Source: an uncultured Verrucomicrobiae bacterium
Lineage (GTDB): Bacteria; Verrucomicrobiota; Verrucomicrobiia; Chthoniobacterales; UBA10450
Reading direction: 5' to 3'
DNA length: 64,000 nucleotides
Assembly (NCBI GenBank): GCA_963831805.1
Contig: CAWHRN010000010.1
Span: forward strand, 1,107 to 65,106
The notes under the pieces are model-generated. The model was given only the letters and a program-made list of their open reading frames with translations. It was not told the origin of the DNA and ran no database searches. Position 1 is the first letter of the stretch. Each line of letters starts with the position of its first letter. Position numbers and translations under genes: made by a program. Positions 20,469 through 64,000 of the stretch are shown piece after piece.

Positions 20469-20550
20469 CCGAGTGTGACTCGGGCCTGCGGCCATCCGCC
20501 TGCTTGGAGCACACCTGCCTAACGACTATAAGTCCGGGCGACGGCTAACC

Positions 20551-22822
20551 CTATAGCTGCAGCATGTACATGCCCCGGCCGAAGGTCGCGGCGTAGAGCG
20601 CGTTTGAGGCGGCGCGGTATTCCAGGTCGGTGACGGGGACGTTCGGCAGTTGTGGACCCGCGGTCCGCCAGGTGCCGCCGTTGTTGGCGGATAGGAAGAC
20701 GCCGACGTCGGTCGCGACATAGAGCTTCGTGCCGACGACGACGAGGTCGTTTACCGGCGCCTGCGGCAGGTTGCCGGAAATATTCGCCCAGGTAAGTCCG
20801 CCATCAGCCGTCCGCAGGACATAAGGCAGCGGTGAGCCGGAGCGAAAGCCGGAGAAGGTCGCGTAGGCCACGAGGGAGTTTGCGGGATCGACAGTTACCC
20901 GGGTGACCCAGGTCCCGGGTACGTCCGGATCAGTCACCCGTGTCCAGTTAACGCCGAGATTGGTCGTAAACCAGAGGCGGCCATCGTCGGTCCCGGCGAG
21001 AATGCGGTTCGGGTCGGTCTTAGCCGCGGCTACGGTCGTAACTGTGCCGAAAGGATAACTCGGATCGCGACCCGGACCGCCGGTAAGATCAGGACTGATG
21101 ACCGACCAATGGACCGCGTGATCAACCGACCGGTTCACCTGGTTTCCCGCGTAGTAAAGGACCGCGGGGTTGGAAGGATCGAACTGAAGCGGAGTCAGCC
21201 AATTCCGCCGCGACGAAGTCGTCGAGCCGGTAAAGTCAGCGCCGTTATTCCCGCCGTCGGTGAAGCGGACGCAGTCACCGTATTGGCTGCACCCATAGAC
21301 ATCGTCCTGCACGACGGGATCGATCAGCGCCTCCAGGCCGTCGCCGCCGACGTACGTGTTCCAACTGCTGCTTCCGTAGGAGCGATTGACGCCGTTATCC
21401 TGCGCGCCACCGACGAGCCGACTCGCGTCCTGTTCGCTCACATCGACGCTATAGAACTGCGTGAACGGCTGACTCGTCGCCGAGACCCATTGGTCGTTCG
21501 AGCCATTCACATCGGAGCGATAAGTGCCGCCATCGTTGCCGAGATAGACGCGACTGGGAACCTTCAGGTCCCAGGCCATCGCGTGATGATCCGAGTGCGG
21601 GTTGAATTCCCCGCTCCAGCTCGCGCCGCTATTCTTCGATTCGCAAAGGTAAACGCCGGCGGCGAAGACATGCGTCTGATCGACCGGATCGACCCAGACG
21701 CGGCCGAACCACCAGCCATAGCTCGATTGCGCGCCGGAGAGCGTGGAGTTGTTGGCGAGCTTGGTCCAGGAATCGCCGCCGTTATCCGATTGGTAGAATC
21801 CTTGGAAAGAATCCGCTGGTTTGGTTTGTGATGACATAAAGCCGCTGCGGATTCGAGGGCGCGAGGGCAAGGCCGATGCGGCCGTTGGTGGAAGAGGCGG
21901 CGGGCAGGCCGTTCGTCAGGCGACTCCAGTTGGCGCCGCCGTCGGTGGTCCGGTAAACCCCGGAACCAACGCCGCCGTAGGTGCGCAGATCCGGCTCGCG
22001 CAAGTGATCCCACATCGCCGCGAAAACGCGGTTCGGATTCGTCGGATCGATCGCAATGTCCACCGCGCCGGTGGTGTCGTTATCGCCGGCGAGGACGCGC
22101 GTCCAGGTGGTGCCGTTATCGGTCGAAGCGTACACGCCGCGATCGCCGCCGTGGCTGTAGAGCTGGCCGGCGACGGCCGCGTAAATGTGTTGCGGATTTG
22201 TCGGATCAACCGCGAACCGGCCGATCGCCCCGGAGTTCGTTAGGCCGACGTTTTGCCAGGTCCGGCCGCGATCGACCGAGCGGTAAATTCCCGCGCCGCC
22301 GTAAGTGATGCTGCCGCCGCCGGGATTGGGTTCGCCCGTTCCGGCAAAGAGCGTCCCGTTCGAAGTGATGAGGAGCGCGCCCATCGATTGCGGATTGGTC
22401 ACGGGCCAGAGCGCGGTGAAGTGCGAGCCTTTGTCCCGGCTCTTCCAGATGCCGCCGGTCGCCGCCGCGATGTAAACCGTATCTTTTGCGACCGGGTCGA
22501 CGGCAATATCGACCACGCGGCCGCCGATGTTCGTCGGCCCCGCAAATATCCAGCCGGTGCGCGCTTGCCCCGAGGTGGCTTGTTCATCAGCGGCTGCCAA
22601 CGCCGCGGCCTGTGCGCCCGCCCGTTCGAGCGCTCCGGCGGGAATGCCGCCATGCACGACGCGCTGGGTGACGAACCAATCTTCCGGCGGGCTTTCCCGC
22701 TCTTCCTCTTCGCCGACCCGACGGTCCTTTGCCGGCCGCATGGAAAAACCAAAAAGCAGCGCTCCGGCGAGGAGCAGCACGAAACCAGACACCAACCGAA
22801 ACCCAACGATGCGCATCTTCAT
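20551..22822 (-). CDS. BNR/Asp-box repeat protein (sialidase/GH74/sortilin-like beta-propeller), frameshift near 21800
   Basis: Many Asp-box motifs: SRDKGSHFT, SVDRGRTWQ, STDNGTTWT, TTDGGANWS, SDNGGDSWT, SKNSGASWS, TADGGLTWA, SANNGGTWR. TM/signal start MKMRIVGFRLVSGFVLLLAG. Confidence 0.7.
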
Positions 22823-22917
22823 CGCGCGCAGGCTAGCGGCCCTCCCACCGCAGAAGCAAGCCTGTTGCCAAACGACTCCGCGGTTGAGCAGCCGGGAAGT
22901 CAGGCGTAAGCAATTCG

Positions 22918-23679
22918 ATGCTTCTGCGCCCTCTTCTCCTGCTCTCGTTGCTCGCGCTGGCGACACCGGCCTTCGGCCAACTCGGGAGCGCGCTCGACGC
23001 GCATGGCGGGCTGGAGAAATGGCACGCCTTCGCCGGCGTGGAGTACGACCTGATCTGGAAAAACGCCCAGGGCGAAAAGCACGATCACGAGCTTTTCAAT
23101 CTCCAGAACCGCTCAGGACTAATCACGAGCGACAAATACACGATCGGCTCGAGCGACGGCAAAGTCTGGATCAAGCCCGGGCTCGACGCGCTCGGCGGAA
23201 CTCCGCCGCGCTTCTACATGGGGACGCCGTTTTATTTTTTCGGGATGCCGTTTGTCTTCGCCGATCCGGGCAGCAAGCAGGAGTCGTTAGGCAAAATGAA
23301 GTTTCGCGGGGTGGAATACGATGCGCTCCGGATCACTTTCAGCAAAGGAACGGGCGACACACCGGATGATTTCTACACGGTTTATCTCGATCCGGATTCG
23401 CACCAGTTGAAGCTCGCGATCTACGTGGTGACTTATCCGCAGATGCGGAAAGACAAGCCGATCGACCAGCTCGAGCGGCACGCGATTGTGTTCGATGAAT
23501 GGCAGACGGTCTCCGGCCTGCTCGCGCCGAAGAAAGCGCAGTTCTATAAATGGACCGGCACCGATCTCGACGGCGCCGTGCTCGGCGCGCTCGAATATTC
23601 CCACGTCAAATTCCTCAAGGAAGCGCCGGACCCGGCGAAATTTAAGCAGCCCGCCGACGCGGTGGTCGCGCCGATGTGA
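22918..23679 (+). CDS. Secreted hypothetical protein
   Basis: Intact 253-aa ORF with signal peptide MLLRPLLLLSLLALATPAFG. No recognisable catalytic motif. Confidence 0.55.
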   Translation: MLLRPLLLLSLLALATPAFGQLGSALDAHGGLEKWHAFAGVEYDLIWKNAQGEKHDHELFNLQNRSGLITSDKYTIGSSDGKVWIKPGLDALGGTPPRFYMGTPFYFFGMPFVFADPGSKQESLGKMKFRGVEYDALRITFSKGTGDTPDDFYTVYLDPDSHQLKLAIYVVTYPQMRKDKPIDQLERHAIVFDEWQTVSGLLAPKKAQFYKWTGTDLDGAVLGALEYSHVKFLKEAPDPAKFKQPADAVVAPM

Positions 23680-23705
23680 TTCTCCCGCTCTCTCAGCACT
23701 CAGTT

Positions 23706-25760
23706 ATGAACTCTTCACTCTCGAAAAAGGACAAACTCCGCCTCCTCACTCTGCTCCTCGAAAGCCGGCACGGCGATCTGCGCGAGCAAAATCTCAACCG
23801 CCAGGGCAAAGGCCATTTCCATGTCGCCGGCATGGGCCACGAAGCGCTCGCCGCGATTTCGTTTGCGACCGAGGAGGACGATTACATCTGCGGCTACTAC
23901 CGCGATCGCGCACTCGTGCTCGGGCGCGGCGTGACCTCGCGCGACCTGGCGCTCGATTATTTCGCGAAGCGCAAAGGACAAAGCCACGGCCGGCAAATGC
24001 CGTCGCATTACAGCTATGCCTCGCGCCACATCTGGAGCGTGCCGACGCCGACCGGCGCGCAACTTCTGCCCGCCTGCGGCATCGCCTGGGGCATGCAGCT
24101 CGACGCGAAACCAGAACGTCGTCATCACGACGATCGGCGACGCGGCGACGCGCCAGGGCGATTTCTTCGAGGCGGTCTGCTTTCGCGAAGGAGCGGAAAC
24201 TGCCGGTGCTCTTCATCGTCGAGGACAACGCCTACGGCATCAGCAGCCCGACGCGAAAGATCAACCCGCTCGCGATTGACGTGCTTCAGCCTAACGACTG
24301 GCAGATCGTCGACGGCAGCGATGTCGACGCGGTTTACGCGGCGGGGCAGGAAGCGATGCAGATCGATCCGCGCCGGCAAGGGCCCGGTTTTTCTCTGGGT
24401 GAAAATGGAGCGGCTCTCGAGCCACACGAGTTCCGACGATCACAAACTTTACCGCAGCGCGGAGGAGATCGAAGGCTCTGGCCAAGGCCGATCCGCTGAC
24501 GAGATGGAAAGAGCAGCTGATCGCCGACGGCGATCTCACCGAGGAGGAGTTCGTTAGGCTCGACCAGGAGATCAAGGAACGGGTCCGCCAGGAGTTCATC
24601 GATGCCGAGCGGAGTGAAGATCCGTCGGCGGACGAGCTGGAATTGCAGATCACCGGCGAACTGCCGCAGCTCGACGACGAGATCCTGCCCGCGGGCAAAT
24701 ACCGGATCGGCGACGTCGTCAACCAAACGCTGCGCGCCGGCCTCGAGACGGATCCGCGTCGGATGATTTTCGGCGAGGACATCGAGGATCCGAAAGGCGG
24801 CGTCTTCCGGCTGACGCAAAAGCTTTCGACCGAATTCCCCGAGCAGGTTTTCAATTCGCCGCTCGCGGAATCGACCATCCTCGGCGTCGCCTGCGGTCTC
24901 GCTTCCTACGGCAAACGGCCGGTCTTCGAGCTGCAGTTCATCGATTTCATCTATCCCGGCTGGAACCAGCTCGTGACCAATCTCTCGACCTTGCGCTGGC
25001 GTTCGTTCGGCACCTGGACCTGCCCGGTGGTGCTCTACGCGCCGTACGGCGCGTATCTGCCGGGTGGAAGCCTCTGGCACACCCAGGCGAACGAAGCGGC
25101 CCTCGCCCACTATCCCGGGATCAACGTCGTCATTCCCAGCACGCCGGAGGACGCCGCTGGCCTGCTCTGGACCGCGATGCATTGCGACGACCCAACCATT
25201 GTCCTCATCCCGAAACATCTGCTCTGGGCCGAACACGAATCCGCCGAGCCGCTTCGCGCGGTGCCGTTCGGCAAAGCCCGCACTCACCAAACCGGCTCCG
25301 ACGTTACCGTCGTCGCCTGGGGCAACACGATGGAGAAATCGATCGAGGCGCTCGCGAAACTCGGGCGACCGCGCGAGCGTCGAGTTGATCGATCTGCGCT
25401 CGATCGCGCCGTGGGACCGCGCGGCGATCGAGGAATCGGTGCGCAAGACCGGCCGGCTCGTCGTCGTGCAGGAAGACACGGAAAATTGCAGCGTCGGCCA
25501 GATGATCATCTCCCATCTCACCGGCATCAGCGACATCTGGGACGCGATGATCAGCCCGCCGCTCCTCGTCAGCAAAGGCAACGTCATGATCGGCTACAAC
25601 CCGATCTACGAATACGCCGCGCTGCCGGACGTCGAGCGGATCGTTAGGGCAATTGAACGTTCGGTCGCGACCAAATCGGAGCGGATTGTTTCCGCCGCCG
25701 GCGCGGAGCCTGGAAGTGTTCGCTCGACCCCGGCGACAAAAGCGACGTCCGGCCAAAGCT
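23706..25760 (+). CDS. 2-oxoacid dehydrogenase E1 component, fused alpha/beta subunits, several frameshifts. 3-prime end uncertain
   Basis: E1-alpha motifs (GMGHEALAAISFA, YYRDRA, TIGDAATRQGDFFEA, LPVLFIVEDNAYGISSP), then E1-beta motifs (GEDIEDPKGGVFRLT, FNSPLAESTILGVACGLA, ELIDLRSIAPWD). The protein must be read across frames 23676, 24016, 23486, 24643 and 25064. Confidence 0.75.
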
Positions 25761-26922: not shown

Positions 26923-27541
26923 CTTCCAGAATGGTTTGCGCCTCCGGAAAGATCAATTCCTCCCACTCAGCGTAGGCCTTGGCGGACGGATGCAATCCGT
27001 CCGCCGCGACCAGCGACGGGTCCTCGCCCATTCTCCTGCTCAGCGGAAAAATATCGACCAAGGGTAACCCCCGCTGCTTTGCCTCTTCCGCGATCACTTT
27101 GTTGAAGCTCGCGAGACCGGCCGAGATATCGCGCCCGCGCGCATAGGTCGGCCCGTCCGGCGTGACCGAGAAATCCGGAATGTTGATCACGAGCAAGCGT
27201 CGCTCGTTAGGCACAATCTGCAGCATCGCGTCGAGCAGCTCCGCGACGTTGGCGCGGAAGACAGCCGGCTCGACGTCCTGCACCCAGTCGTTCACCCCGA
27301 GCATGAACGTCCCGAAATCCGGCCGCGCCGCGCGAAATAACGGCAGCTCCTTTTCGATCGCATCGCGTGTCGTCCAGCCGGTTCGCGAAGGGTTCGAGAC
27401 CAGCTCGACCGGGATTCCACTTGTCGTTAGGCGTTGCGCCAGTAACGCCGGCCACGATTCCTCTTCGCTCGCCCCTTCGCCGATCGAATAGGAGTCGCCG
27501 ATTACAGCATAACGAATGGGCGGCGCGGGCATCGGCCGCAT
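26906..27541 (-). CDS. SGNH/GDSL-family hydrolase
   Basis: [13 protein letters not shown] (block I Ser), GVNDW, and DGLHPS near the C-terminus. The start is chosen at MRPMPAPP; the ORF extends to 27574. Confidence 0.75.
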
Positions 27542-27609: not shown

Positions 27610-28657
27610 ATGCCGCGCGCGATCATCCATCTCGACATGGATTGCTTCTACGCCGCGATCGAGGTGCGCGATCGACCGGAGCTGCGCGGCAAACCGGTCG
27701 GAGTCGGCGGCGCGCGGGATCGGCGCGGTGTGCTCACCACCTGCAATTACGAGGCGCGCGCGTTCGGCGTGCACTCCGCGATGCCGACCTTCATGGCGCT
27801 GCAGCGCTGCCCCAAATTGATCGTCCTGCCGACGCGTTTCGATGTCTACCGGCGCGAATCGGCGACGATCCGGGCAATCCTTCACCGCTTCACGCCGCTG
27901 GTCGAGCCGCTCTCGCTCGACGAAGCCTATCTCGATGTCACGTCGCATCCCGGTGCGCCCGGTCCCCTCGCCCAGGTCATTCGCGATCTGATTTTTCGGA
28001 AAACCAAACTGACCGCCTCCGCCGGCATCGCGCCGAACAAGCTGGTCGCCAAAATCGCGAGCGACCTGAAGAAACCGAACGGCCAATACGAAGTCGCGCC
28101 TAACGACGTCGCCGGAATTCATGGCCGCGCTCCCGGTCCGCAAGATCTGGGGCATCGGCGCGGTCACGGAGCAGAAGCTGCAGCAGCGCGGGATCACCAC
28201 CTGCGGCGAGCTGCAGCGTTTCAGCCGGCTGCAATTGCAGGAGCAGTTCGGCAAATTCGGCGCGGAGCTCTACGACCTTGCGCGCGGGATCGACGAACGC
28301 GCAGTCGAGCCGCATCGCGAACGCAAATCGCTCAGCAACGAGGAGACGTTCGCGATCAATCTGGAAACGCTCGAGGCCTGCGAAGAGAAGCTGGAGGAAC
28401 TCTACGCCGAGCTGATGGCCGAACTCGCGCAGAAGGAAAACAGCCGCGCGATCACGAAGATTTTCGTGAAGCTGAAGTTTGCCGATTTCACCCGGACGAC
28501 GGTGGAGCGCGCCGGGCTTCCGCCGTCGTTAGGCGACTACCGCACGCTGCTCACCGAAGCGTTCGCTCGGACCGGCAAGAGCGTGCGCTTGATGGGCGTC
28601 GGCGTTCGCTTCGCGCCAATCGCCGAGCCGGAAGCGGCCCAGCTTCCGCTGCTTTAG
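27610..28657 (+). CDS. dinB: DNA polymerase IV (Y-family), frameshift near 28110
   Basis: [64 protein letters not shown]. It then continues in ORF 28121..28657 with [16 protein letters not shown]. Confidence 0.85.
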
Positions 28658-28668: not shown

Positions 28669-29424
28669 TTAAGTCCAATTCGGGGGACGCTTTTCGAGGA
28701 ACGCGGCGATGCCTTCCTTCGCTTCCACCGATTCGCGCGCTTCCATGTGATGACGCAGCGCGCGGTCAATATCCTCTTGCACCGAAGTCGACCAGAGTTC
28801 CTCGAGCAGGCGTTTGCTGCTCGCGAGGGCGCCGGGGGCATTCTGCAAAATCGCTGCGACCAGCTTTTGCACTTCGCTTTCGAGTTCGTTAGGCGCGACC
28901 ACCCGGTTGACCAGGCCGATCTCCCGCGCGCGTGCCGCCTCGATCAGCTCGCCGGTGAAAAGCAGCTCGCGCGCATCGCGTTCGCGGAGTTGGCGCCGGA
29001 GGAAGGTCATCACCAGGCCGGCGACGAGGCCGCGCTTCACTTCCGGATAACCGATCTTCGTGCCCTCCGCCGCGACCACGAAATCGCAGGCCGACATCAA
29101 ACCCGCGCCGCCGGCCAGAGCCGCGCCGTGGATCTGCGCGATCGTGATCATCCGCGTCTGGCTGACCGCGTGCAGCATTTGTGCGATCGCGTCCGCCGAG
29201 CGATGCGCGCGCTCGGCGATTTGCGTTTCGTTCAAATCCAGCCCGGCGCAGAAGACCTTGCCCGCACCGCGCAGGATGAGCACGCGCTGCTTTTCACTTG
29301 CTGCCGTCTCGATCGCGGCGACCAATTCCTCCATCAGCTCGATCGTCAGGGCATTGCGGCGTTCCGGACGATTAAGGGTCAGCGTGGTGACGCGGTCGGT
29401 GGTTTCGATAAGAACGTTAGGCAT
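28669..29424 (-). CDS. Enoyl-CoA hydratase/isomerase family (methylglutaconyl-CoA hydratase-like by context)
   Basis: [26 protein letters not shown]...FCAGLDLNE crotonase motif. Internal start of ORF 28669..29586. Confidence 0.8.
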
Positions 29425-29479: not shown

Positions 29480-30340
29480 ATGGAAGAGCAACCTGTGAAA
29501 CTGATCGAATGCCCGCGTGACGCCTGGCAGGGTTTGCCGCGGCCGATTCCGACCGACCGCAAAGCGGAATACCTGCGTGCGCTCATCGCCGCCGGTTTCC
29601 GTCATCTCGACGCGGTCAGCTTCGTTTCGCCGAAAGCCGTCCCGCAGCTGGCGGACAGCGAAGCCGTCCTCGAGCAATTGGTTCTGCCTAACGACCTCGA
29701 GATCATCGGCATCGTCGTGAATGAAAAAGGCGCCGAGCGCGCCATCGCCACCGGCAAAGTGCAGACGCTCGGTTATCCCTACTCGATCTCGCCGACCTTC
29801 CTCCGGCGGAATCAAAACCAATCGCCGGAAGAAAGCCTCGCCACTCTCGGCCGGATCGCGGCGAACACGCATGCGCATGGGCTCAACCTGGTCGCCTACC
29901 TCTCGATGGCCTTTGGCAATCCTTACGACGATCCCTGGAGCAAAGGGCGGCTGAACGCCGCGATTACCTCGATCACCATGCTCGGCGTAGGCGCGCTCTC
30001 GCTCGCCGATACCGTCGGCGTCGCGACGCCGGAGCTCATCCGCGAAGTCGTTGCGGCGGCGGTCTCCGCGCAGCCTGGGTGCGAGATCGGCGTCCACCTG
30101 CACAGCACGCGCGCCGGAGCCCCGGAAAAGATCCTCGCCGCCTACGACGCTGGCTGCCGCCGTTTCGATGCCGCCCTCGGTGGCCTCGGCGGCTGCCCCT
30201 TCGCGCAGGATGATCTCGTGGGAAACATCCCGACCGAGGAAGTCATCCGCGCTCTGGCGAAGCGAGGCACGACTTTTGAAATCGATCTGACAGCCGTCGC
30301 GGCGTTGAACGAAGCCATCAGCCACGAGTTCGCGAGCTGA
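29480..30340 (+). CDS. Hydroxymethylglutaryl-CoA lyase
   Basis: [50 protein letters not shown] (HMGL-like family signatures). Confidence 0.85.
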
Positions 30341-34032: not shown

Positions 34033-34087
34033 CGAACGCGGAACTCGCCGGGAGGCCGGACCGGCCCGCGCGCGTCGGCTCAAGCTG

Positions 34088-45082: not shown

Positions 45083-45125
45083 CGCCTAACGAGTTAATAC
45101 GCTGGCGTCGCGGTGCGCTCGCGAT

Positions 45126-46592: not shown

Positions 46593-46951
46593 CAGATCGT
46601 TTTCCTTGGTTTGATGCTTTGGTTTCGACGGGAAAGCTTACGGTGGATCGGATTACCGGCAGCTCGTGTCTTCGTGATTTCGGTAGCCAAATAAAAAACG
46701 GTCAAGCAAAAAAGTTATAGGTCATCCGGTGGCGTCCGCCCGTAACGGATGCAGAGCAACAGTCGGGGTTCCAACAGTGCCCCCTTCGAGCGATAAATGG
46801 CTGGGTGGCATCTCCAATTCTCTGTAGCGTCCGCTTTTCTCAGAGACAAAAGCCCCCGGACGCGCTGGGGACAGCGACCCGCCTGCAGGTGAAGCCGAAA
46901 GCTGCTGGCAGGACCCTTCGCTTCGCTCAGGATGACAAGGATGCGGCTCGC

Positions 46952-51688: not shown

Positions 51689-51841
51689 CTGCGCGCGGTC
51701 ACCGCGGGCGGCGGCGCAGGATTCCGTGGCGGCGGCGCGTGAGCGCCCCGCCTGCGGGATCATGAGCGCGAGAATTGTCCGGAGCCGCGGCGGGTTCTTC
51801 CGAGCCGGCCGCGCTTCGCCCCGGCGGACCGAGGAACGCGC

Positions 51842-53000
51842 CTAACGAGCCCCGGCGCGGACTTTTCCTTTTTGGAAATTCCCCGGCGGCTGCTTCTCGT
51901 CATCGGGCGCCGCGCCGGCGGAGTTCCCCAGGTCCTGCTCCTCCGGCGGGAGGAACTTCTTGAACAGGTTCTTGTCGATCGCCTTCATGTACGCCTCGTG
52001 CGGCGAGACGACGCCCTGCTGGAGGTTCGCCCAGATCGCGTCGTCCATGAACTGCATCCCCTGCCCCTTGCCGCTCACGATCACGTCCTGTAGTTTCTGC
52101 GTCGCGCCTTCGCGGATGATCGACGAGACGGCGCTGTTGGAGATGAGGATTTCGTTAACCGCGAGCCGGCCCTTGCCGTCGGCGCGCTTCAGGAGGAGCT
52201 GCGCGACCACGCCGCGCAGCGAGTTGGCGAGCATCGTGCGGACCTGCGGCTGCTTGTCGGCGGGGAAGACGTCGATCATACGGTCGACCGTCTTGCGGGC
52301 GTTGTTCGTGTGCAGGGTGCCGAAGACGAGCAGGCCGGTCTCCGCCGCGGTCAGCGCGAGCTGAGATCGTCTCCAGATCGCGCATTTCGCCGACGAGCAC
52401 GATGTCGGCGTCTTCGCGCAGCGCGGCCTTCAGGCCCGCCGGGAAGGTGGCCGAGTGCTCCGGCACCTCGCGCTGGGTGATGATGCTCTGCTTGTTGTTG
52501 TGCACGAACTCGATCGGCTCCTCGATCGTGATGATGTGCCGCGAATAGTTGCTGTTGATGTAATCGATGAGCGCCGCCAGCGTCGTCGATTTGCCGGAAC
52601 CGGTCGGCCCGGTGACGAGGACGAGGCCGCCGCGCAGGTGGCCGAATTCCTTGACCACCGGCGGCATGCCCAGCTGCTCGAGCGACGCGATCTTCGTGGG
52701 GATGAGGCGGAAGACGCCGCCGTAGCCGTTCGTCTGCTTGAGGAAGTTGCAACGAAAGCGCGACTCCTCATCCATCTCGTAGGCGAAATCGAGGTCGCCG
52801 CGCTCCTCGAAGATCTCCCAGCTCTTCGGCCCGCTGATTTCGCTCATCATGTGCACCGCCTCGTCGCGCGTGACCGGCTCGTCGCGAATGGCCATTACGT
52901 CGCCGTGCCGGCGGATCTTCGGCGGCTGCCCCTCGCCGAGGTGCAGGTCGGAGGCGCCTTCAGTGACGAGGACTTCGAAGAATTGATCGATGTAGGGCAC
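51842..53000 (-). CDS. Type IV pilus retraction ATPase paralogue (PilT/PilU family), frameshift near 52360
   Basis: GLVLVTGPTGSGKSTTLAA (Walker A), IITIEEPIEF, DADIVLVGEMRDLETI, then LLVFGTLHTNNA... in ORF 51842..52279. Confidence 0.8.
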
Positions 53001-53528: not shown

Positions 53529-54647
53529 TCAGGCGTTCTCCCCGACGTGCTGGCGCATGGCCTGTTTCTGTTCCGCGCGGGCGATCGCTTCCTCGCCGCT
53601 GATCAGGCCTTCGTCGAAGAGCTGCGTGAGGGAGTCGTCCATCAGGCGCATCCCCTGTTTGCGGCCGGTCTGGATGATCCCGGGGAGCATGTAGGTCTTG
53701 GCTTCGCGGATGACGTTCGCGACGGCGGGGGTGTTGGTCAGCACCTCGAGCGCGAGGACCCGGCCGTGGCCGTCCACCCGCGGGACGAGCTGCTGGCTGA
53801 TCACGCCGCGGAGCGATTCGCTCACCATGACGCGGATCTGGTCCTGCTGGTCGACCGGGAAGACGTCGAGGAGCCGGTCGAGGGTGCGCGAGGCGTTCCC
53901 GGTATGCAGCGTGCCGAGGACGAGGTGCCCCGTCTCGGACGCGGTGATCGCCAGCGAGATCGTCTCGAGGTCCCGCATCTCGCCGACCATGATGACGTCG
54001 GGATCTTCGCGCAGCGAGCCGCGGAGGGCGGCCCCGAAGGACTTCGTGTGGGTGTGCACTTCGCGCTGGGTGATGTGGCAGCCCTTCGGCTGGAAGACGT
54101 ATTCGATCGGGTCCTCCAGCGTGATGATGTGTTCGTGGCGCTCGAGGTTCACCTGTTCGACGAGCGCGGCGAGGGTGGTCGATTTGCCGCTGCCGACCGA
54201 CCCGGTGACGAGGATGAGGCCGTTGTGGAAACGCGTCAGGAGTTTCAGCCCCTCCGGCAGACCGAGCTCGTCCATCGTGCGCACCTGCGTGCTGATGATC
54301 CGGAAGACGAGGTCGAGCCCGAGCCGTTGCCGCACGACGCTGGTGCGGAAGCGCCCGAACTCCGTGGCGTAGGCGAAGTCCACGTCGCCCCGCTCCGCGA
54401 GCTGCGCGCGCTGGGCGGGGTCGAGGAAACCCTGGGCGAGCGCCTCGGTTTCTTCCGCGGTGAATTTCGGCGCATCCGGCCAGATCGGCTGGAGCGTGCC
54501 GTGGAGCCGCCAGAGCGGCGGGGCGTTCACCCCGAGGTGAATGTCGGACGCGCCACCTTCCTGCCCGATGGCGAGATACTGGTCGACGTGCGGACTGGCC
54601 GCCTCCGCACCCGCCGGAGTCGCGGCGGCGTCGGGTTCAACTGTCAT
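53529..54647 (-). CDS. pilT: Type IV pilus twitching-motility ATPase PilT
   Basis: Intact 372 aa: GLILVTGSVGSGKSTTLAA, IITLEDPIEY, DPDVIMVGEMRDLETI, GHLVLGTLHT. Confidence 0.9.
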   Translation of the reverse strand: MTVEPDAAATPAGAEAASPHVDQYLAIGQEGGASDIHLGVNAPPLWRLHGTLQPIWPDAPKFTAEETEALAQGFLDPAQRAQLAERGDVDFAYATEFGRFRTSVVRQRLGLDLVFRIISTQVRTMDELGLPEGLKLLTRFHNGLILVTGSVGSGKSTTLAALVEQVNLERHEHIITLEDPIEYVFQPKGCHITQREVHTHTKSFGAALRGSLREDPDVIMVGEMRDLETISLAITASETGHLVLGTLHTGNASRTLDRLLDVFPVDQQDQIRVMVSESLRGVISQQLVPRVDGHGRVLALEVLTNTPAVANVIREAKTYMLPGIIQTGRKQGMRLMDDSLTQLFDEGLISGEEAIARAEQKQAMRQHVGENA

Positions 54648-56158: not shown

Positions 56159-56203
56159 GACCTTAATCTGCCGCAGACTCGTTAGGTTGGCAAACCGCCG
56201 CGC

Positions 56204-58063
56204 TCACTGGAGGGAGATCGCCGGCAGATAGGTGCTCGGACCGTCGCGCCGCCACCACGCGCCCGTGGCCCGGCGTTCCGCCGGGGTGGTGAAGCGGTAC
56301 TGGTAAAGATCCGCGCGGAGCAGGCGCGGCGGCTTGTCCGGGAAAGGATTCGTCCGCAGGAGAGCGAGCACGCTCGGCTCGTTCTCCAGCAGCCGCACCG
56401 CCAGCCCGAGGAACCACCGATCCTGCTCCGGACCGCCCCCGAGCGCCGCGAACCACATCTGCCAATCGAGCCGCGGCTGATGCGGCTCCACGAAACCGGG
56501 CATCCGGTCGAGCGCGCCGGGCTTCCATTTGAACTCGTACGGCTTCCACTCCCGGCCGTCGTTGCTTCCTTCGATGATGATCTCCGGCCGTTCCTTCGTC
56601 ATCACGCGAAAGAGGCCGTAGCCGTTCACCACGCGGAACGGCTCGATCGCGCCGTAGAGCGCGGCGAGCGGGCGCGGCCAGCGCACGTTCGTGCAGCTCG
56701 CGAGCAGGAGCATGGCATTCACCGGCAAGGTCACCGCGACCACGAGCGCGACCGCCCAGGCGGCCCAGCCATTCCCGCGAGTCGCCGGCGCGCTCCGTCC
56801 CGGCCAGCTGTGGTCGTCCACGAGGAGCAGACAGAGCGCGATCGTCAGCAAGTTAAAAAAGGCGTAGTTCCCGGTGAGCCCGATCACCACCTGCAAGATC
56901 ACCAGCGCCGCCGCGCCGCTCAGCCGGAAATGCCGCGGCAGCCAGAGCAGGAACGCGCCGCCGATCTCCACCACGAGCACGGCCGCGGTGGAGAAATGCC
57001 GGGTCCACTCCGGCGCCTGCGCGGCCCACCAGCCCGGCGCCGTCGGCAGCGGTTGCGTCCAATAATGGTAATCGAGCGCGCTCAGGTTCCACCACGACGC
57101 GTCGCCGCTCGTCAGCTTCACCACGCCGGACATCAGCATCAATTTGAAGAGGAGGAAGTGCAGCAGAAAGACCGCGACCCGCGAGTGCGGCATCGCCTCG
57201 TTAGGCCGGACCCACCAGCGCCACGGCGCGAGGAAGATCGCGAGGAAACCGGCCTCCAGCAGCAGGATGTCCCATTGGAAACTAAGGAAGTCCTGACCCG
57301 CGATGGTCAGCGACAGGTAATCGGCGAAGAGCAGCACGAGACAGAGCACCGGCGCGACGCCCGCCACCAACAGCAGCGCGAGCGCCGCCCCCGCGCCACA
57401 GAGCAGATGGAGCGCGGCATCGCTGGCGTTGAACCAACAGAGAGTCGGGAGGACCAGCGCAGCGTGCGCGCCGAGTTGCCCCTTCGCCGCCGCGAGGTAA
57501 CCCGCGACCGGCGCAATCCCGTGCGCGCCGACGAGCCCATCCACCTGCACCCAAAGCGAGAGAAACGCGATCAGGTAGATCACGCCGACGGCGCGGAGGA
57601 ACCAATTCGCGGCCCGGTGATACGTCGGACGTCGCACGTCCTTCCCCCACCCGATCGCGGTGAACCGATGCGCCAGCTCCCGGTGCCCCGCGATGAACCG
57701 GTAGGTCGCCTCCGTCAGCGGCGCGAACCCCGGGACGCGCGTGTAACTCCAGCGGCCGATCGCCCATCTCCGGCCCGCGCCGAGCGAGCGGAAAACCGCT
57801 TCCGCACTGCTGAAGACGGCGCCATCTGGTTCCACCAGCTTCACCGCCCGTTCGAAGGCCGCCCGCGGCACTTCCGGGAAATGTTCCGCCGCTTCCTGCA
57901 GCGGCGCGTAGTCCACCCGCCCGGCGGTGATCTCCCGCCACCGCGCGATCCAGAGTTTGCAAAAGCCGCAATCCCCGTCGTAAACCAAGAGCGGCCGCGA
58001 CGGCGGGACGGCAACCTGAGACACGGGACCGGGCACGCCCCAAAGTCCGACGCCCCGCCGCAA
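56204..58063 (-). CDS. DCC-type thiol-disulfide oxidoreductase (DUF393) fused to a lipase-maturation-factor (LMF1-like) membrane domain
   Basis: N-terminal LVYDGDCGFCKLWIARW. Polytopic middle part. C-terminal NGYGLFRVMTKERPEIIIEGSNDGREWKPYEFKWKPG...PHQPRLDWQMWFAAL. Confidence 0.7.
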   Translation of the reverse strand: MRRGVGLWGVPGPVSQVAVPPSRPLLVYDGDCGFCKLWIARWREITAGRVDYAPLQEAAEHFPEVPRAAFERAVKLVEPDGAVFSSAEAVFRSLGAGRRWAIGRWSYTRVPGFAPLTEATYRFIAGHRELAHRFTAIGWGKDVRRPTYHRAANWFLRAVGVIYLIAFLSLWVQVDGLVGAHGIAPVAGYLAAAKGQLGAHAALVLPTLCWFNASDAALHLLCGAGAALALLLVAGVAPVLCLVLLFADYLSLTIAGQDFLSFQWDILLLEAGFLAIFLAPWRWWVRPNEAMPHSRVAVFLLHFLLFKLMLMSGVVKLTSGDASWWNLSALDYHYWTQPLPTAPGWWAAQAPEWTRHFSTAAVLVVEIGGAFLLWLPRHFRLSGAAALVILQVVIGLTGNYAFFNLLTIALCLLLVDDHSWPGRSAPATRGNGWAAWAVALVVAVTLPVNAMLLLASCTNVRWPRPLAALYGAIEPFRVVNGYGLFRVMTKERPEIIIEGSNDGREWKPYEFKWKPGALDRMPGFVEPHQPRLDWQMWFAALGGGPEQDRWFLGLAVRLLENEPSVLALLRTNPFPDKPPRLLRADLYQYRFTTPAERRATGAWWRRDGPSTYLPAISLQ

Positions 58064-58105
58064 AGGTCGAGCCTCAAGATGAGCCCGCCGCGCCCCGCGC
58101 CGAGC

Positions 58106-58876
58106 CTAACGACCGAACTCCGCCCAGACCGGCGCGTGATCCGAAGGCTCAGGACCCTTCCGCATTTCCCGGTCGATCCCCGCCCCGGTCAGCTCCGCGC
58201 TCAACTCGCTCCCGGCGAGGATGGCGTCGATCCGCAGGCCGCGATTCTTTGGGAACGCGAGCATCCGGTAGTCCCACCAACTATAGAGCCCCGGCTCCGG
58301 ATGGAGCAGCCGCAGCGAATCCGCGAGCCCGAGTCCCTCCAGCGCGCGGAAGGCCGCCCGCTCCGGCTCCGAGCACATGATCGCGCCGTGCCAGAGCGCC
58401 GGATCGTGCACATCCGCATCCGCCGGCGCGACGTTGAAGTCCCCGCACACGAGCGTCCGAGCCAGCCCGCGGCTCTCCTCTTGCAGCCGGGCGGTGAGCC
58501 GTTGGAACCAGCGGAGCTTGTATTGATACGCCGTGCTCCCGACCGCCTGCCCGTTAGGCGCGTAGATCGAAAACACGCGCGCGTCGCCCACTTCCGCGCT
58601 GATCACCCGCGCCTGATCATCCGCCTCCGCGTCGCCCATTCCGATGCGGACCGCGCGCGGCTCCGTGCGGGAGAGAATCGCGACCCCGTTATAAGACTTC
58701 TGCCCGTGGAAGACCGCGAAATAGCCCGCCCCGCGCAGCGCGAGCTCGGGAAATTGCTCGTCGGTGCACTTCGTTTCCTGGAGGCAGACGATATCCGGCG
58801 CGCTCGCCTCGAGCCAGGCGAGGAGGCGATCCTGCCGTCTGCGCAGCGAGTTGATGTTCCACGAAGCGATGCGCAT
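58106..58876 (-). CDS. xthA: Exodeoxyribonuclease III
   Basis: MRIASWNINSLRRR, CLQETK, GDFNVAP, SDHAPV. Intact 256 aa. Confidence 0.9.
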   Translation of the reverse strand: MRIASWNINSLRRRQDRLLAWLEASAPDIVCLQETKCTDEQFPELALRGAGYFAVFHGQKSYNGVAILSRTEPRAVRIGMGDAEADDQARVISAEVGDARVFSIYAPNGQAVGSTAYQYKLRWFQRLTARLQEESRGLARTLVCGDFNVAPADADVHDPALWHGAIMCSEPERAAFRALEGLGLADSLRLLHPEPGLYSWWDYRMLAFPKNRGLRIDAILAGSELSAELTGAGIDREMRKGPEPSDHAPVWAEFGR

Positions 58877-60535: not shown

Positions 60536-61480
60536 ATGGATAATCCGCCTAACGATCCCGCGGAAGCGCTCCTCCACACTTATAGCGTGGACGGCGGGAT
60601 CAATTATCTCGCCGCCGCCGCCACGCTCCCCTCGCGGCCGGCGATCGATGCGGCCTGCATCGATCTGCTCAGCCTGCTCTTTCCCGGTTTCCATGGCGAG
60701 CCGTTGATCGATCCGGGCGATCTTCCGGATGTCACGCGCATCCGGATTCGCTCGCTCCGTGCGCGGCTCCTGCCGGAGATGGTGAAGAGTCTCGCCCGCC
60801 GCGCCGGCGAGTGTGAGTCGACCACGACGAGGGCGGAGCGGATCCTCGTCGATTTCTTCAGCAAGCTCGCGAGCGTGCGCGAGATGCTCTGGTCCGATCT
60901 CGACGCGGCCTACGAGGGGGATCCCTCGGCGACGAGTTTCGAGGAGGTGATCCTGGCCTATCCGTCGCTCGAGGCGATCGCGATCCAGCGGCTGGCGCAC
61001 ATTCTCTACCGGCACCAACTGCCGCTGATCCCGCGGATGATGACGGAGTGGGCGCACGGGCAGACGGGGATCGATATCCATCCCGGGGCGCAGATCGGGA
61101 GCCACTTTTTCATCGATCACGGGACGGGTGTGGTGATCGGCGAGACGTGCGTGATCGGCGCGCGGGTGAAGCTCTACCACGGGGTGACGCTGGGCGCGCG
61201 GAGCTTCGAGAAGGACGAGAACGGGCACATCAAGAAGGGAGGCCAGCGGCATCCCCGGATCGAGGATGGGGTGACGATTTATCCGAACTCGACCGTGCTC
61301 GGCGGGGAGACGGTGGTCGGCGCGCACAGCACGATCGGCGGGAACGTGTTCCTCACCCACAGCGTGCCGCCGGATTCGCTCGTCTCCTACGAGGCGAACC
61401 ATCTCCAGGTGGTGCACAAGCAGCCGCGGAACGCGCCGGCGCGGGCGTCCGCGCCTGACGAGTCCGCGGTGTTGGAATGA
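60536..61480 (+). CDS. cysE: Serine O-acetyltransferase (long form)
   Basis: GIDIHPGAQIGSHFFIDHGTGVVIGETCVIGARVKLYHGVTLG hexapeptide region. Internal start of ORF 59120..61480. Confidence 0.8.
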   Translation: MDNPPNDPAEALLHTYSVDGGINYLAAAATLPSRPAIDAACIDLLSLLFPGFHGEPLIDPGDLPDVTRIRIRSLRARLLPEMVKSLARRAGECESTTTRAERILVDFFSKLASVREMLWSDLDAAYEGDPSATSFEEVILAYPSLEAIAIQRLAHILYRHQLPLIPRMMTEWAHGQTGIDIHPGAQIGSHFFIDHGTGVVIGETCVIGARVKLYHGVTLGARSFEKDENGHIKKGGQRHPRIEDGVTIYPNSTVLGGETVVGAHSTIGGNVFLTHSVPPDSLVSYEANHLQVVHKQPRNAPARASAPDESAVLE

Positions 61481-62772
61481 TCTATCTCGACTACAACGCG
61501 ACGACACCGCTCGGCCCGGCGGCGCGGGCGGCGATGCGTCCGTATCTGGAGCGGCATTTCGGGAATCCCTCGAGCGTGCACGCGGCCGGCCGCGAGGCCC
61601 GGGCGGCGATCGATAATGCGCGCGACCAGCTCGCGGCGCTGCTGCGGGTCCGGCCTAACGAGATCGTCTTCACCAGCGGCGGGACGGAGGCGAACAATCT
61701 CGCGCTCCTCGGGCTGGCGCGGAACCTCGCGCCTAACGGAAAGCATTTGATCAGCAACCGGGCCGAGCATCACGCGGTGCTGCACACGCTCGAGCACCTG
61801 GAGCGGCGGGAAGGCTTCGAGGTGACCTGGCTCGATGTTTCGCCTGACGGCTTGGTCGATCCCGCGGCGCTCGCGGCGGCGATCCGGCCGGACACGATCA
61901 TGGTCTCGTTGATGACCGCGAATAACGAGACCGGCGTGCTCCAGCCGATGGTGGAAATCTCAGCGGTCTGCCGACAGGCGGGCGTGCTCCTGCATAGCGA
62001 CATGGTGCAATCGTTCGGGAAAAGCCGAGACGAGTCTGTCATTCTGAGCGAAGCCGCCGGCGCAGTCGAAGGATCCCGTGGAGGCTCTGCAAAGCCCCGT
62101 TTTCTCGACAGTGCCAGCTTCCCAAAAGCCCAACGGGATCCTTCGACTCTGCTCCGCGGCGCTCAGGAAGACCGGCTGGTGGGACTGGTCGACGCGGCCA
62201 GTTTCGCGGCGCACAAATTCTACGGGCCGAAAGGCGCCGGGTTTCTCTATCTCCGCGCCGGCCTGGCGATCGACGCGATCCAATTCGGCGGCGCGCACGA
62301 AGGCGAACGCCGCCCCGGCACGGAGAATGTCGCCGCGATCGCCGGCCTCGCCGCGGCGGCCGCGGAGGTGCTGGGCGAGCAGCCTAACGAGTCCGCTTTG
62401 CGCGATACGCTTTGGCAGGGGATCCGTGAAGTCTGTCCGGAAGCGCTCGCCAACGGCGCCGACGCGCCGCGGCTCGGCAATACGCTGAACGTCAGCTTCC
62501 CCGGCTACTCCTCGGAGACGTTGCTGATGGCGCTCGATCTCGAAGGCGTCTGCGCCTCGAGCGGCTCGGCCTGCATGGTCGGCTCGGTGGTGGCTTCGCA
62601 TGTCCTCCTCGCGATGGGGCTGCCGCCGGAGCGGGCTTCCTCCGCGGTTCGTTTCTCGTTAGGCAAACAGACCACGTTGGCGGAAATCGCCGAGACCGTG
62701 GCGGCGCTCGGGCGAATCTTTTCCCGCCTGAAAACGCGCCGCGGCGTCACCCAGCCGGCTTTCGCTTCGTGA
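61477..62772 (+). CDS. Cysteine desulfurase (class V aminotransferase, NifS/IscS-like) carrying a 45-codon in-frame element
   Basis: MIYLDYNATTP, TSGGTEANNLA, HSDMVQSFGK, AAHKFYGPKGAGFLY, SSGSACM. Confidence 0.85.
   Translation: MIYLDYNATTPLGPAARAAMRPYLERHFGNPSSVHAAGREARAAIDNARDQLAALLRVRPNEIVFTSGGTEANNLALLGLARNLAPNGKHLISNRAEHHAVLHTLEHLERREGFEVTWLDVSPDGLVDPAALAAAIRPDTIMVSLMTANNETGVLQPMVEISAVCRQAGVLLHSDMVQSFGKSRDESVILSEAAGAVEGSRGGSAKPRFLDSASFPKAQRDPSTLLRGAQEDRLVGLVDAASFAAHKFYGPKGAGFLYLRAGLAIDAIQFGGAHEGERRPGTENVAAIAGLAAAAAEVLGEQPNESALRDTLWQGIREVCPEALANGADAPRLGNTLNVSFPGYSSETLLMALDLEGVCASSGSACMVGSVVASHVLLAMGLPPERASSAVRFSLGKQTTLAEIAETVAALGRIFSRLKTRRGVTQPAFAS
62038..62172. repeat. 135-bp MITE-like palindromic element inserted in frame inside the cysteine desulfurase gene
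   Basis: Arms GTCATTCTGAGCGAAGCCGCCGGCGCAGTCGAAGGATCC (62038-62076) and GGATCCTTCGACTCTGCTCCGCGGCGCTCAGGAAGAC (62136-62172). Translates VILSEAAGAVEGS...DPSTLLRGAQED. Confidence 0.75.
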
Positions 62773-63368
62773 GCATGATCGGCGTGGCGAACCAGCTCGA
62801 GCTGCCGCTCGCGGCGCGTTCGTTAGGCCGGGACCCGGAGCTGGAAGCGCTCGCCGCGGATTTGCTCCGGCGCAACGAAGCCGCAGCGCTCGCCGCGACG
62901 GTCCGCGTCGAATGGTCGGCCCGGCTCCGCAGCGCCGCGGGTCGCGCCGAATACCACGCCGGTCGCGTCCTGCTCAATCGCCGGCTCTGGCCGCACGGCG
63001 CCGCGGAGATCGATCGCACCCTGCGGCACGAGCTGGCGCATTTGCTTGCCCACTTCCGCGCGGGCCGTCGACGGATCGCGCCGCACGGCACGGAATGGCG
63101 CCGCGCCTGCGCCGATCTCGGGATCGCGGGCGAAGCGCGCTGTCACACGCTGCCGTTCCCGATTCGTCGGCGGACGCGGCCTTATCTTTATGTCTGCCGC
63201 CATTGCGGTCGCGATTTCCCGCGGACGCGTCCGCTCCGGCGCACCTCGGCCTGCCTCGCCTGCTGCCGCGAACACAATCACGGGAAGTTCGACCCGCGTT
63301 TCAAGTTGGAGCGCCGGCCCGCGGCCGAGGGCCAGAACGCGGCCACGCCGCCACACTTGTCATCCTGA
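62769..63368 (+). CDS. SprT-like zinc metallopeptidase-domain protein
   Basis: RTLRHELAHLLAHF (HExxH) followed by a Cys-rich segment CRHCGRDF...CLACC. The 3-prime end runs into the MITE. Confidence 0.7.
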   Translation: MSMIGVANQLELPLAARSLGRDPELEALAADLLRRNEAAALAATVRVEWSARLRSAAGRAEYHAGRVLLNRRLWPHGAAEIDRTLRHELAHLLAHFRAGRRRIAPHGTEWRRACADLGIAGEARCHTLPFPIRRRTRPYLYVCRHCGRDFPRTRPLRRTSACLACCREHNHGKFDPRFKLERRPAAEGQNAATPPHLSS

Positions 63369-63468
63369 GCCGCGCAGACGGCGAAGGACCTCGCAAGCGT
63401 CGTGTGAGTGTGGTTGCCTAACGAACCCGCAAGACGCCTGCGAGATCCTTCGCTCCGCTCAGGATGAC
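63359..63468. repeat. MITE-like palindromic element with GCCTAACGA in its loop
   Basis: GTCATCCTGAGCCGCGCAGACGGCGAAGGACCTC ... TTGCCTAACGAACCCGCAAGACGCCTGCGAGATCCTTCGCTCCGCTCAGGATGAC. Confidence 0.7.
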
Positions 63469-63507
63469 AACGCCATGAAACGGTGCGCATCGACAGTTCG
63501 TTAGGCG

Positions 63508-64000
63508 TTAGGCGTCGTCAACTGCGTTGTCGCCTTTGCCGGCTTTCTGTCCGCGCAATTTTGCCTGAATGAAGAGGTCGATGTCGCCATCCATCACTGC
63601 CTGCACGTTGCTCGTCTCCGCGCCGGTGCGGTGGTCTTTCACCATCTGATACGGCTGGAAAACATAGCTCCGAATCTGGCTCCCCCAGGCGACGTCGCCC
63701 TTCTCGCCGTACTGCCGGTCGATCTCGGCGCGCTTCTTGTCCTGCTCGATCTCGTAGAGTTTGGCCTTCAACATTTTCAAGGCCAGCTCGCGGTTGCGGC
63801 CCTGGCTCCGCTCGGCCTGGCAGGCGACGACGATGCCGGTCGGCTGGTGCACGATCCGCACCGCGGTCTCGACCTTGTTCACGTTCTGCCCGCCTTTGCC
63901 GCCAGCGCGGAAGGTCGTGATGTCGAGGTCGGCCGGGTTCACTTCGATCGGCGCCGAGTCCGCGATTTCCGGCGTGACATCGACGCTCGCGAAGGAAGTG
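63508..64000 (-). CDS. prfB: Peptide chain release factor 2, C-terminal part (continues beyond the window)
   Basis: [64 protein letters not shown]. The reading frame is open to nt 64000. Confidence 0.9.

Follow-up and report, generated by a model that had tools for sequence, protein, structure and literature searches.

A single nine-nucleotide word, TCGTTAGGC (on the opposite strand GCCTAACGA), was found to be hyper-abundant in a 64-kb stretch of DNA from an uncultured Verrucomicrobiae bacterium (GenBank contig CAWHRN010000010.1, positions 1,107 to 65,106; this whole stretch is referred to as the window). The word is a DNA-level signal, which is read as a duplex 9-mer and not via translation. 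Judged by its likeness to the uptake sequences of other bacteria, there is about an even chance that it serves as a lineage-specific self word for DNA uptake or transformation and was spread by molecular drive.

The window contains 46 exact copies of TCGTTAGGC, 23 on the forward (+) and 23 on the reverse (-) strand. In 100 dinucleotide-preserving shuffles of the window the mean was 0.36 copies and the maximum 3. The copies are unevenly distributed, 44 being situated within 20517-63506 and only 2 in the first 20 kb. For the 7-nt core CGTTAGG 59 occurrences were counted, 3.4 being expected. Its recount between 20.5 and 64 kb (56 copies, 32 + and 24 -, among them the approx. 44 exact 9-mers) agreed exactly with the initial annotation, and so did the start positions given there. 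The variant TCGTTAGT was likewise found at the reported places (31302, 31434, 36975, 37530, 38224 and 40693) and at one more, 11047. A 3rd-order Markov model of the 20-64 kb region predicted 0.82 copies against the 44 observed, and the top four 9-mers of this region by excess over the model all overlap the motif; the first 20 kb is without any word of comparable excess in the same ranking. When synonymous codons were shuffled within genes, using the 18 Pfam-supported genes past 20.5 kb (21.9 kb in all), 20 copies were observed, whereas the 1000 shuffles averaged 0.70 and none exceeded 4. This null model is conservative, since the rare codons contributed by TCGTTAGGC itself stay in the shuffled pool. 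The claimed enrichment therefore held on the window genes under the codon-aware null and on the 20-64 kb region under the Markov null.

The density of exact copies is 1.0 per kb across 44 kb of the window, which is in keeping with the density of about 1.3 per kb stated before. According to automated calls of open reading frames (ORFs), about three quarters of the copies are inside ORFs. The densest cluster covers 46950-49456, where 10 exact copies are found in 2.5 kb over the Sua5/TsaC and purK genes, and no copy is present in 51849-57197 (pilT genes, a holin-like gene and infA); the overall spacing still fits random placement. A sequence logo of 101 copies pooled over five genomes displayed a sharp 9-mer with weak flanks: A is rare at position -1, and at the 2nd to 4th bases on the 3' side purines prevail and T is scarce. 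A longer or bipartite motif was rejected on the basis of this logo.

TCGTTAGGC occupies all six reading frames in the window genes. Its sense readings are S-L-G, x-V-R-x and x-R-stop, and the antisense ones are P-N-[D/E], x-L-T-x and A-stop-R. Most copies sit in frame within conserved genes, without any change in length, and at the orthologous positions of distant relatives non-motif DNA is found, which encodes other residues. In 5 of the 22 supported genes the stop codon is supplied by an exact copy (4 of the 8 TAG and 1 of the 4 TAA codons). The exact copies in the window, with the strand of TCGTTAGGC, are the following.

4030..4038, -: antisense in the alpha/beta-hydrolase gene 3705-5030(+), G-L-T-N
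6832..6840, -: provides the TAG stop of the LysR-type gene 6834-7529(-)
20517..20525, -: intergenic; gene 20551-21870(-) ends 26 nt upstream of the copy
22237..22245, +: antisense in a (-) ORF, G-L-T-N, frame by coding score
23284..23292, +: sense, S-L-G, ORF 22918-23679(+)
24289..24297, -: antisense in a (+) ORF, Q-P-N-D
24551..24559, +: F-V-R-L in ORF 24403-25647(+), or TAG stop of ORF 23676-24557(+)
27204..27212, +: antisense in the GDSL-lipase gene 26906-27574(-), V-P-N-E
27424..27432, +: antisense in the same GDSL-lipase gene, R-L-T-T
28098..28106, -: within ORF 28070-28657(+)
28526..28534, +: sense, S-L-G, ORF 28070-28657(+)
28886..28894, +: antisense in the enoyl-CoA hydratase gene 28669-29586(-), A-P-N-E
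29686..29694, -: antisense in the HMGL-like gene 29480-30340(+), L-P-N-D
34027..34035, -: antisense in the truA ORF 33815-34831(+), L-P-N-E
34719..34727, +: sense in the truA ORF, L-V-R-Q
36399..36407, +: intergenic or in a weak ORF; exact in the relative L001
38790..38798, -: provides the TAG stop of the phoH-like gene 38792-39673(-)
40884..40892, +: without a confident ORF, just past the 5' end of ORF 40279-40848(-)
41701..41709, +: sense in the PfkB-family (HldA-like) kinase gene 41175-42206(+), L-V-R-Q
41864..41872, -: antisense in the same kinase gene, P-P-N-D
42201..42209, -: its complement GCC-TAA-CGA gives the TAA stop of 41175-42206(+); overlaps the start of gmhB 42196-42741(+)
42936..42944, -: frameshifted region between gmhB and the CTP synthase gene
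43069..43077, +: the same frameshifted region
43517..43525, +: sense, S-L-G inside the N-terminal motif of CTP synthase
45084..45092, -: intergenic, begins 2 nt past the CTP synthase stop codon
45186..45194, -: intergenic, loop of a hairpin element resembling a miniature inverted-repeat transposable element (MITE) or a repetitive extragenic palindrome (REP); arms 45144-45170 and 45197-45223
46950..46958, -: provides the TAG stop of the Sua5/TsaC gene 46952-47929(-)
47181..47189, +: antisense in the Sua5 gene, V-P-N-D
47287..47295, +: antisense in the Sua5 gene, R-L-T-K
47371..47379, -: sense in the Sua5 gene, I-V-R-P
47578..47586, +: antisense in the Sua5 gene, G-L-T-T
47892..47900, +: antisense in the Sua5 gene, M-P-N-E
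48154..48162, -: sense in purK 47926-49065(-), S-L-G-A
48275..48283, +: antisense in purK, A-P-N-E
48774..48782, -: sense in purK, I-V-R-P
49448..49456, +: at or slightly upstream of the 5' end of the subtilase gene 49520-51688(+)
51840..51848, -: provides the TAG stop of the second (frameshifted) PilT/PilU-family gene
57198..57206, +: antisense in the LMF1-domain gene 56204-58063(-), R-P-N-E
58104..58112, -: provides the TAG stop of the EEP-family gene 58106-58876(-)
60547..60555, -: N-terminal extension of the beta-CASP/metallo-beta-lactamase ORF 59018-61507(-), I-V-R-R if the ORF is correct
61653..61661, -: antisense in the class-V aminotransferase gene 61477-62772(+), R-P-N-E
62382..62390, -: antisense in the same aminotransferase gene, Q-P-N-E
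62656..62664, +: 3' part of the same aminotransferase gene
62820..62828, +: sense, S-L-G-R, ORF 62769-63368(+)
63416..63424, -: intergenic, loop of the second hairpin element; arms 63381-63407 and 63433-63459
63498..63506, +: intergenic, adjoins the end of ORF 63508-63999(-)

Another instance of the core (GCGTTAGGC, 63505-63513) partly overlaps the last copy listed.

The imprint of the word on the proteins was clearly seen in the 18-gene set, where CCT-AAC-GA spells 11 of the 12 P-N-[D/E] tripeptides while CCT makes up only 9.5% of the Pro codons. Similarly, TCG-TTA-GGC spells 3 of the 4 S-L-G tripeptides and TTA is 2.1% of the Leu codons, as expected from the earlier remark that the word forces this rare codon. 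The P-N-[D/E] rate was 1.01 per 1000 amino acids in window 20-64 kb and 0.68 in the motif-rich relatives described below, as compared to 0.16 in motif-poor Chthoniobacterales, a value equal to the amino-acid-frequency expectation; the excess over the motif-poor relatives is 4-6 fold. In the motif-rich genomes 26 of the 27 P-N-[D/E] tripeptides are encoded by the motif, and the control tripeptides PD[DE], PS[DE] and AN[DE] did not rise in these genomes. A codon or peptide artefact is ruled out by the synonymous shuffling and the tripeptide-encoding tests, in accordance with the previous statement that a DNA word is concerned. The force on TCGTTAGGC acts at all nine positions and in any frame, and it alters amino-acid and stop-codon choice.

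The frames assigned to individual copies earlier could be followed for the S-L-G of CTP synthase at 43517, for L-V-R in truA (34719) and the HldA-like kinase (41701), and for P-N-D/E at 24289, 29686, 41864 and 62382. At 60547 the reading would be I-V-R-R instead of the earlier P-N-D/E if the ORF 59018-61507(-) is correct. Since the assembly carries indel frameshifts, some of the per-gene frames are uncertain; among the copies this concerns those at 24551, 28098, 49448 and 62656 as well as 43069 (kdsB) and 42936 (L-T), where the copies themselves are present. The beta-CASP/metallo-beta-lactamase nuclease ORF around 60547 codes for 829 residues and has an N-terminal extension of about 370 residues without a family match, and a long antisense ORF, 59120-61480(+), leaves the frame of this extension uncertain. 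The occurrence of copies at gene ends and in hairpin loops, which had also been pointed out, was borne out by the stop codons of the five supported genes and by two hairpin copies.

The beta subunit of 3-methylcrotonyl-CoA carboxylase (MCCase) encoded in the window has homologues of 85-92% identity in soil metagenomes, named Chthoniobacterales (Verrucomicrobiota), and the window belongs to a metagenome-assembled soil genome of this order. The comparison set consisted of 80 loci around the MCCase gene from GTDB species representatives and of further loci obtained via exact protein look-up. The numbers of exact TCGTTAGGC copies were as follows.

Closest relative L001: 19 copies in 21.6 kb
Closest relative L081: 14 copies in 21.6 kb
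Closest relative L082: 12 copies in 21.6 kb
Closest relative L034: 11 copies in 21.6 kb
Intermediate L025: 4 copies in 11.3 kb
Intermediate L083: 6 copies in 13.8 kb
Intermediate L084: 6 copies in 21.3 kb
More distant Chthoniobacterales, 20 loci (L004-L023): 23 copies in 344 kb
Other orders and phyla, 53 loci: 2 copies in 855 kb

TCGTTAGGC is the top-ranked 9-mer by count in each of the four closest relatives (0.5-0.9 per kb). In the 20 distant Chthoniobacterales loci it is about 10 times weaker than in the closest relatives, the coding DNA of these loci still containing 15 copies versus 0.99 under a codon-aware null. No copy was present in those loci of other orders and phyla which have a GC content above 55% (312 kb). 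A further 27 motif-dense soil metagenome contigs (216 kb, GC 0.54-0.69) came from a metagenome scan for convergent double copies, and they hold 0.67 copies per kb additional to these. L034 and L025 carry MEGAHIT-style (short-read) contig names and many JGI soil contigs also hold the word, therefore a long-read sequencing artefact was rejected. An IMG/VR scan for direct double copies as a sign of motif-dense phages gave 34 matches, all of them chance or tandem repeats on contigs unrelated to the clade; the scan had low sensitivity and is a weak negative.

An unrelated long palindrome, which carries the TCGTTAGGC word in both arms, was also observed: (A/G)TGATGGG-TCGTTAGGCAC-N8-GTGCCTAACGA-CCCATCA(T/C). 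It occurs once per high-GC soil contig (63-74% GC; L128, L137, L141, L148, L149, L155, L163, L175, L186, L203 and L214 are among them), it is without an Rfam match and its host contigs are not motif-dense.

Comparison of the window with L001 (approx. 80% nucleotide identity) indicated that 7 of the 8 motif sites are fully conserved as compared to 17.7% of other 9-mers (p = 4e-5), and with L081 (82% identity) 6 of the 10 were conserved as compared to 21% (p = 0.008). The conservation declines with evolutionary distance. The copy 28886..28894, for example, is exact in L001, one-off in L034 and non-motif in distant relatives, and 29686..29694 is kept in L001 and L034, other residues being encoded there in distant relatives. 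Conservation so far above that of other 9-mers indicates that the excess of TCGTTAGGC is maintained actively and not merely replenished.

Positions 3-7 of the word are almost invariant in the one-off spectrum of the motif-rich genomes, in which the commonest variants are TCGTTAGTC (19), TTGTTAGGC (13), TCGTTAGGG (13), CCGTTAGGC (11) and TCGTTAGGT (9). L001 adds the variant words TTGTTAGGC and TCGTTAGTC; in L025 TCGTTAGTC outnumbers TCGTTAGGC (5 versus 0.11 expected), and L012 has the variant word TCGTTAGC (5 versus 0.39 expected). A different dispersed word, (A)AGATCGACA, was found on both strands of L011, L016 and L017 and is absent from the window; 17-21 copies are present in 46 kb of coding DNA versus 2.1 (maximum 6) under synonymous shuffling. 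The top words of L009 and L019 were discounted, being local repeats and not dispersed. The words of the sister lineages, variant or different, include TCGTTAGTC, TTGTTAGGC, TCGTTAGC and AAGATCGACA, and the variants exceed codon-aware nulls. This arrangement resembles the dialect structure of the DNA uptake sequences (DUS) of Neisseriaceae, an analogy which may or may not extend to function.

The two orientations are interleaved in the 20-64 kb region (23:21; 26 runs versus 23 expected), and a Chi-like strand skew of 75% could be rejected (p = 0.0009). Orientation was not heterogeneous among the 27 metagenome contigs (chi-square 31.8, 27 degrees of freedom, p = 0.24), and it was unrelated to their GC skew (r = -0.16). 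Neither in the window nor in these contigs was there a strong replication-linked strand skew of the type known from Chi or from the FtsK-orienting polar sequences (KOPS), and the strand symmetry without a polarity switch noted at the outset was thus confirmed. The spacing is Poisson-like (coefficient of variation 1.14, random range 0.75-1.30), and regular or periodic spacing was not seen within the 44 kb. TCGTTAGGC is not self-complementary and differs in this respect from the palindromic octamers of the HIP1 (highly iterated palindrome 1) type; nor is it part of a longer intergenic palindromic unit of the REP/MITE type, only the 9-mer being common to the copies.

The first 20 kb of the window, with 2 copies versus about 20 expected, deserves separate consideration. 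The block 4074..13077, which codes for the alpha/beta hydrolase, NDH-2, LysR, HlyD and AcrB, has 2 copies in 9 kb. In a single 9-kb high-scoring segment pair it is 87% identical to ENA ERZ25039463 contig_20771, a genome which around MCCase is only 72% identical to the window and has 2 copies in 21.6 kb. Because of this difference in identity, 4074-13077 appears to have been exchanged recently with a lineage poor in TCGTTAGGC, and almost no copies have been gained since. The closest NDH-2 homologues come from outside the motif-rich relatives. A chimeric contig as the source of the motif-poor 1-20 kb was rejected, since on the related 480-kb contig of this genome some 27 kb separate NDH-2 from MCCase and the two genes follow each other as they do in the window. 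The rest of the 13-20 kb region codes for variable surface-type proteins with dockerin and GloVer repeats. The motif-poor region is bordered by a truncated HsdR gene, 258-1502(+), which corresponds to the C-terminal part of the type I restriction subunit only (model positions 586-669 of 674) and is the sole restriction-modification trace in the window.

Genes connected with type IV pili are present in the window.

53529..54647, -: intact gene of a PilT/PilU-family type IVa pilus ATPase (TIGR01420, 423 bits, cut-off 319)
51842..53000, -: another ATPase gene of the PilT/PilU family, which a frameshift divides into two pieces (52155-53000 and 51842-52429)

The presence of these two genes was counted for a role in uptake. 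Hosts of DUS or of similar uptake sequences code for a full competence apparatus (type IV pilus, ComEA, ComEC, DprA) and for a receptor specific for the word (ComP, or the predicted ComN). No competence genes besides them were found in the window or in the approx. 20-kb loci of the relatives. The ORF 53064-53525(-) between them was discounted as a pilin, its translation being a low-complexity repeat of 153 residues rich in P, R, D and V; three tandem 21-nt repeats are located inside it at 53075-53158, and it probably does not correspond to a real protein. The CTP synthase gene (43481-45082) changes frame twice, e.g. by an extra base near 43535-43545. The frameshifts in this gene and in the second pilT/pilU gene suggest indel errors of a long-read consensus, not pseudogenes. 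The hairpin element at 45144-45236 and 63381-63466 has two copies, 87% identical, with inverted arms around a loop bearing TCGTTAGGC, and a weaker third copy lies near 46882-46934. Known RNA families and tRNAs were not found in the window.

Since the traits of TCGTTAGGC match the signature of DUS and of the uptake signal sequences (USS) of Pasteurellaceae, drive through uptake was taken as the best explanation. We infer that uptake or transformation is biased, that a receptor exists and that recombination carries the word. Some part of the type IV pilus or competence machinery would preferentially bind or import fragments bearing TCGTTAGGC; alternatively, a step right after uptake would favour such fragments. 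These fragments would then recombine into the chromosome, and mutations creating or improving a copy would therefore be over-transmitted by molecular drive. The word would come to occupy every position where it costs little: synonymous codons, as in S-L-G with the rare TTA; loops that tolerate P-N-D/E; the final codon together with the stop codon; and intergenic DNA. DNA freshly imported from lineages without TCGTTAGGC would remain poor in copies. That sequence-specific recognition of self-DNA for transformation had an independent origin in this uncultured, globally abundant soil clade of Verrucomicrobiota is possible, though we would put it at somewhat below even.

Several observations weigh against a role in uptake. 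About half of the DUS and USS copies described in the literature lie in inverted-repeat terminators, and no close inverted TCGTTAGGC pairs were found in the window; the convergent pairs in the metagenome contigs are without T-runs after them. PilT/PilU ATPases are also common in non-competent bacteria. Moreover, the site conservation, the depletion in imported DNA and the lineage restriction would also be expected from any slow lineage-specific selective or repair process.

The main rival is a HIP1-like word, kept because it is targeted by an orphan methyltransferase or a repair system or serves to organise the chromosome, and not for uptake at the surface; we consider this reading unlikely. 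HIP1 is reported to exceed expectation 15- to 300-fold and to be conserved from genome to genome, both inside ORFs and outside them, and the enrichment (about 50-130 fold) and the conservation of TCGTTAGGC are of the same order; the word also offers a CpG and a GGC as potential methylation sites. However, it is non-palindromic, unlike HIP1, and its spacing is random within the 44 kb. All nine positions are driven, C-to-T directions included, and the C-to-T variants TTGTTAGGC and TCGTTAGGT are among the commonest one-offs, i.e. the signature of very-short-patch repair is missing. Nine contiguous specified bases also exceed the ordinary methyltransferase sites. Recent preprints describe that HIP1 raises the efficiency of natural transformation and propose it as an uptake signal; as a role in transformation is now claimed for HIP1 itself, this explanation partly merges with the self word for uptake and the two may converge. 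A Chi-like contribution has been proposed for HIP1 as well, which bears on the idea that TCGTTAGGC marks DNA as self for RecBCD/AddAB or a defence nuclease during the processing of DNA ends and is selected in the core genome because the cell's own DNA is thereby protected and repaired. Abundance in native DNA and near absence from the exchanged 4-13 kb segment would fit such a marker, but the interleaved orientations and the rejected strand skew described above do not, and this idea appears rather improbable. Known Chi sites are co-oriented with replication, 5-8 nt long and in few-fold excess. A word of 9 nt in more than 50-fold excess, which saturates the synonymous options and alters amino acids, is well past these properties.

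It is distinctly improbable that the copies serve to bind an abundant chromosomal protein with sequence specificity, for instance one that organises the nucleoid or loads SMC, each copy being selected in cis. Such a role would account for the high copy number, the use of both strands and the conserved sites, but the placement is Poisson-like and not regular, every cheap coding opportunity is saturated, which looks drive-like and not like selection for a set number of sites, and no nucleoid protein is known to need a strict asymmetric 9-bp site at 1 per kb inside genes. A neutral by-product of a context-dependent mutational or repair bias, or of footprints of mobile elements, could be thought of because the small hairpin element holds TCGTTAGGC in its loop at two places. 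Since this element accounts for only 2 of the 46 copies, most copies are in frame in conserved genes of unchanged length, the motif sites are far better conserved than other 9-mers, and the force spans all nine positions and alters amino acids, this origin is highly improbable. The indel frameshifts in conserved genes of the window could raise suspicion of an artefact of long-read basecalling, polishing or assembly; its probability is practically negligible, as TCGTTAGGC is the top 9-mer in the short-read-style L034, is present in L025 and in many JGI soil contigs, and is in register with conserved peptides. The Chi-type, nucleoid-protein, neutral-bias and artefact explanations are thus disfavoured.

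If TCGTTAGGC is indeed a self word for uptake, uptake-sequence 'languages' would not be peculiar to two proteobacterial families of animal commensals, and the same signature in Verrucomicrobiota would extend uptake sequences to another phylum and to free-living uncultivated soil bacteria. Soil bacteria would then use such words more widely, as a strategy that shapes the barriers to recombination between them, with sister clades using TCGTTAGC, TCGTTAGTC and AAGATCGACA. The word offers a direct handle on whether and with whom these bacteria exchange DNA by transformation, and it flags foreign genome segments, like the 4-13 kb segment, which was spotted by its scarcity. Correlation of the motif density with gene content across many metagenome-assembled genomes (MAGs) would be a route to the receptor. 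TCGTTAGGC in DNA constructs could aid genetic tractability, and a benefit of this type is reported in a HIP1 preprint for one cyanobacterium. Even without uptake, a 9-mer that rewrites codons, amino acids and stop codons would need a new explanation.

In a comparative study from 2025 the only families described as having uptake sequences are Neisseriaceae and Pasteurellaceae, and our literature search gave no report of uptake sequences for Verrucomicrobiota or from MAGs, TCGTTAGGC itself occurring only in primers and constructs. The statement in the initial annotation that no equivalent is known outside these families calls for some qualification, cyanobacterial HIP1 being a comparable hyper-abundant word which recent preprints connect with transformation. 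The published traits of DNA uptake enhancing sequences are a length of 9-10 nt, hundreds to thousands of copies, dialects, a bias to the core genome and absence from recently acquired genes. The likeness to DUS and USS claimed before was upheld as regards density, lack of polarity, lineage restriction and depletion in imported DNA, and failed for the inverted-repeat terminator pairs. Like TCGTTAGGC, the DUS of Neisseriaceae, which is bound by the minor pilin ComP, is a short asymmetric word that is found roughly once per kb, on either strand and in genes as well as in intergenic DNA; it is restricted to a taxon with variant words in related taxa, and it is rich in native or core DNA and poor in recently acquired DNA. 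Unlike DUS, TCGTTAGGC has an unrelated sequence in another phylum, forms no inverted-repeat terminator pairs, contains TAG and TAA and serves as the actual stop codon of approx. one fifth of the genes. With the USS of Pasteurellaceae it shares a 9-nt core, which is mostly intragenic and lies in reading frames tolerated by the proteins. USS also leaves an imprint on the tripeptide content in Pasteurellaceae. The AT-rich, helically phased flanks of USS are missing from TCGTTAGGC, which has only a weak purine-rich 3' flank, and its host, unlike the USS hosts, has a high-GC genome with an AT-containing core. HIP1 (GCGATCGC) of cyanobacteria is likewise a hyper-abundant word conserved between genomes; in contrast to the asymmetric TCGTTAGGC it is a palindrome, is recognised by known methyltransferases and has a periodicity of 10-90 kb. 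Chi sites of RecBCD/AddAB are also over-represented lineage-specific oligomers of native DNA, but they are moderately over-represented and polar, whereas TCGTTAGGC is more than 50-fold over-represented and has no polarity. What is new here is that a genomic word of this kind occurs in another phylum, that its sequence bears no relation to the known ones and that some of its habits differ, namely its use as a stop codon, its independence from terminators and the near-saturation of P-N-[D/E].

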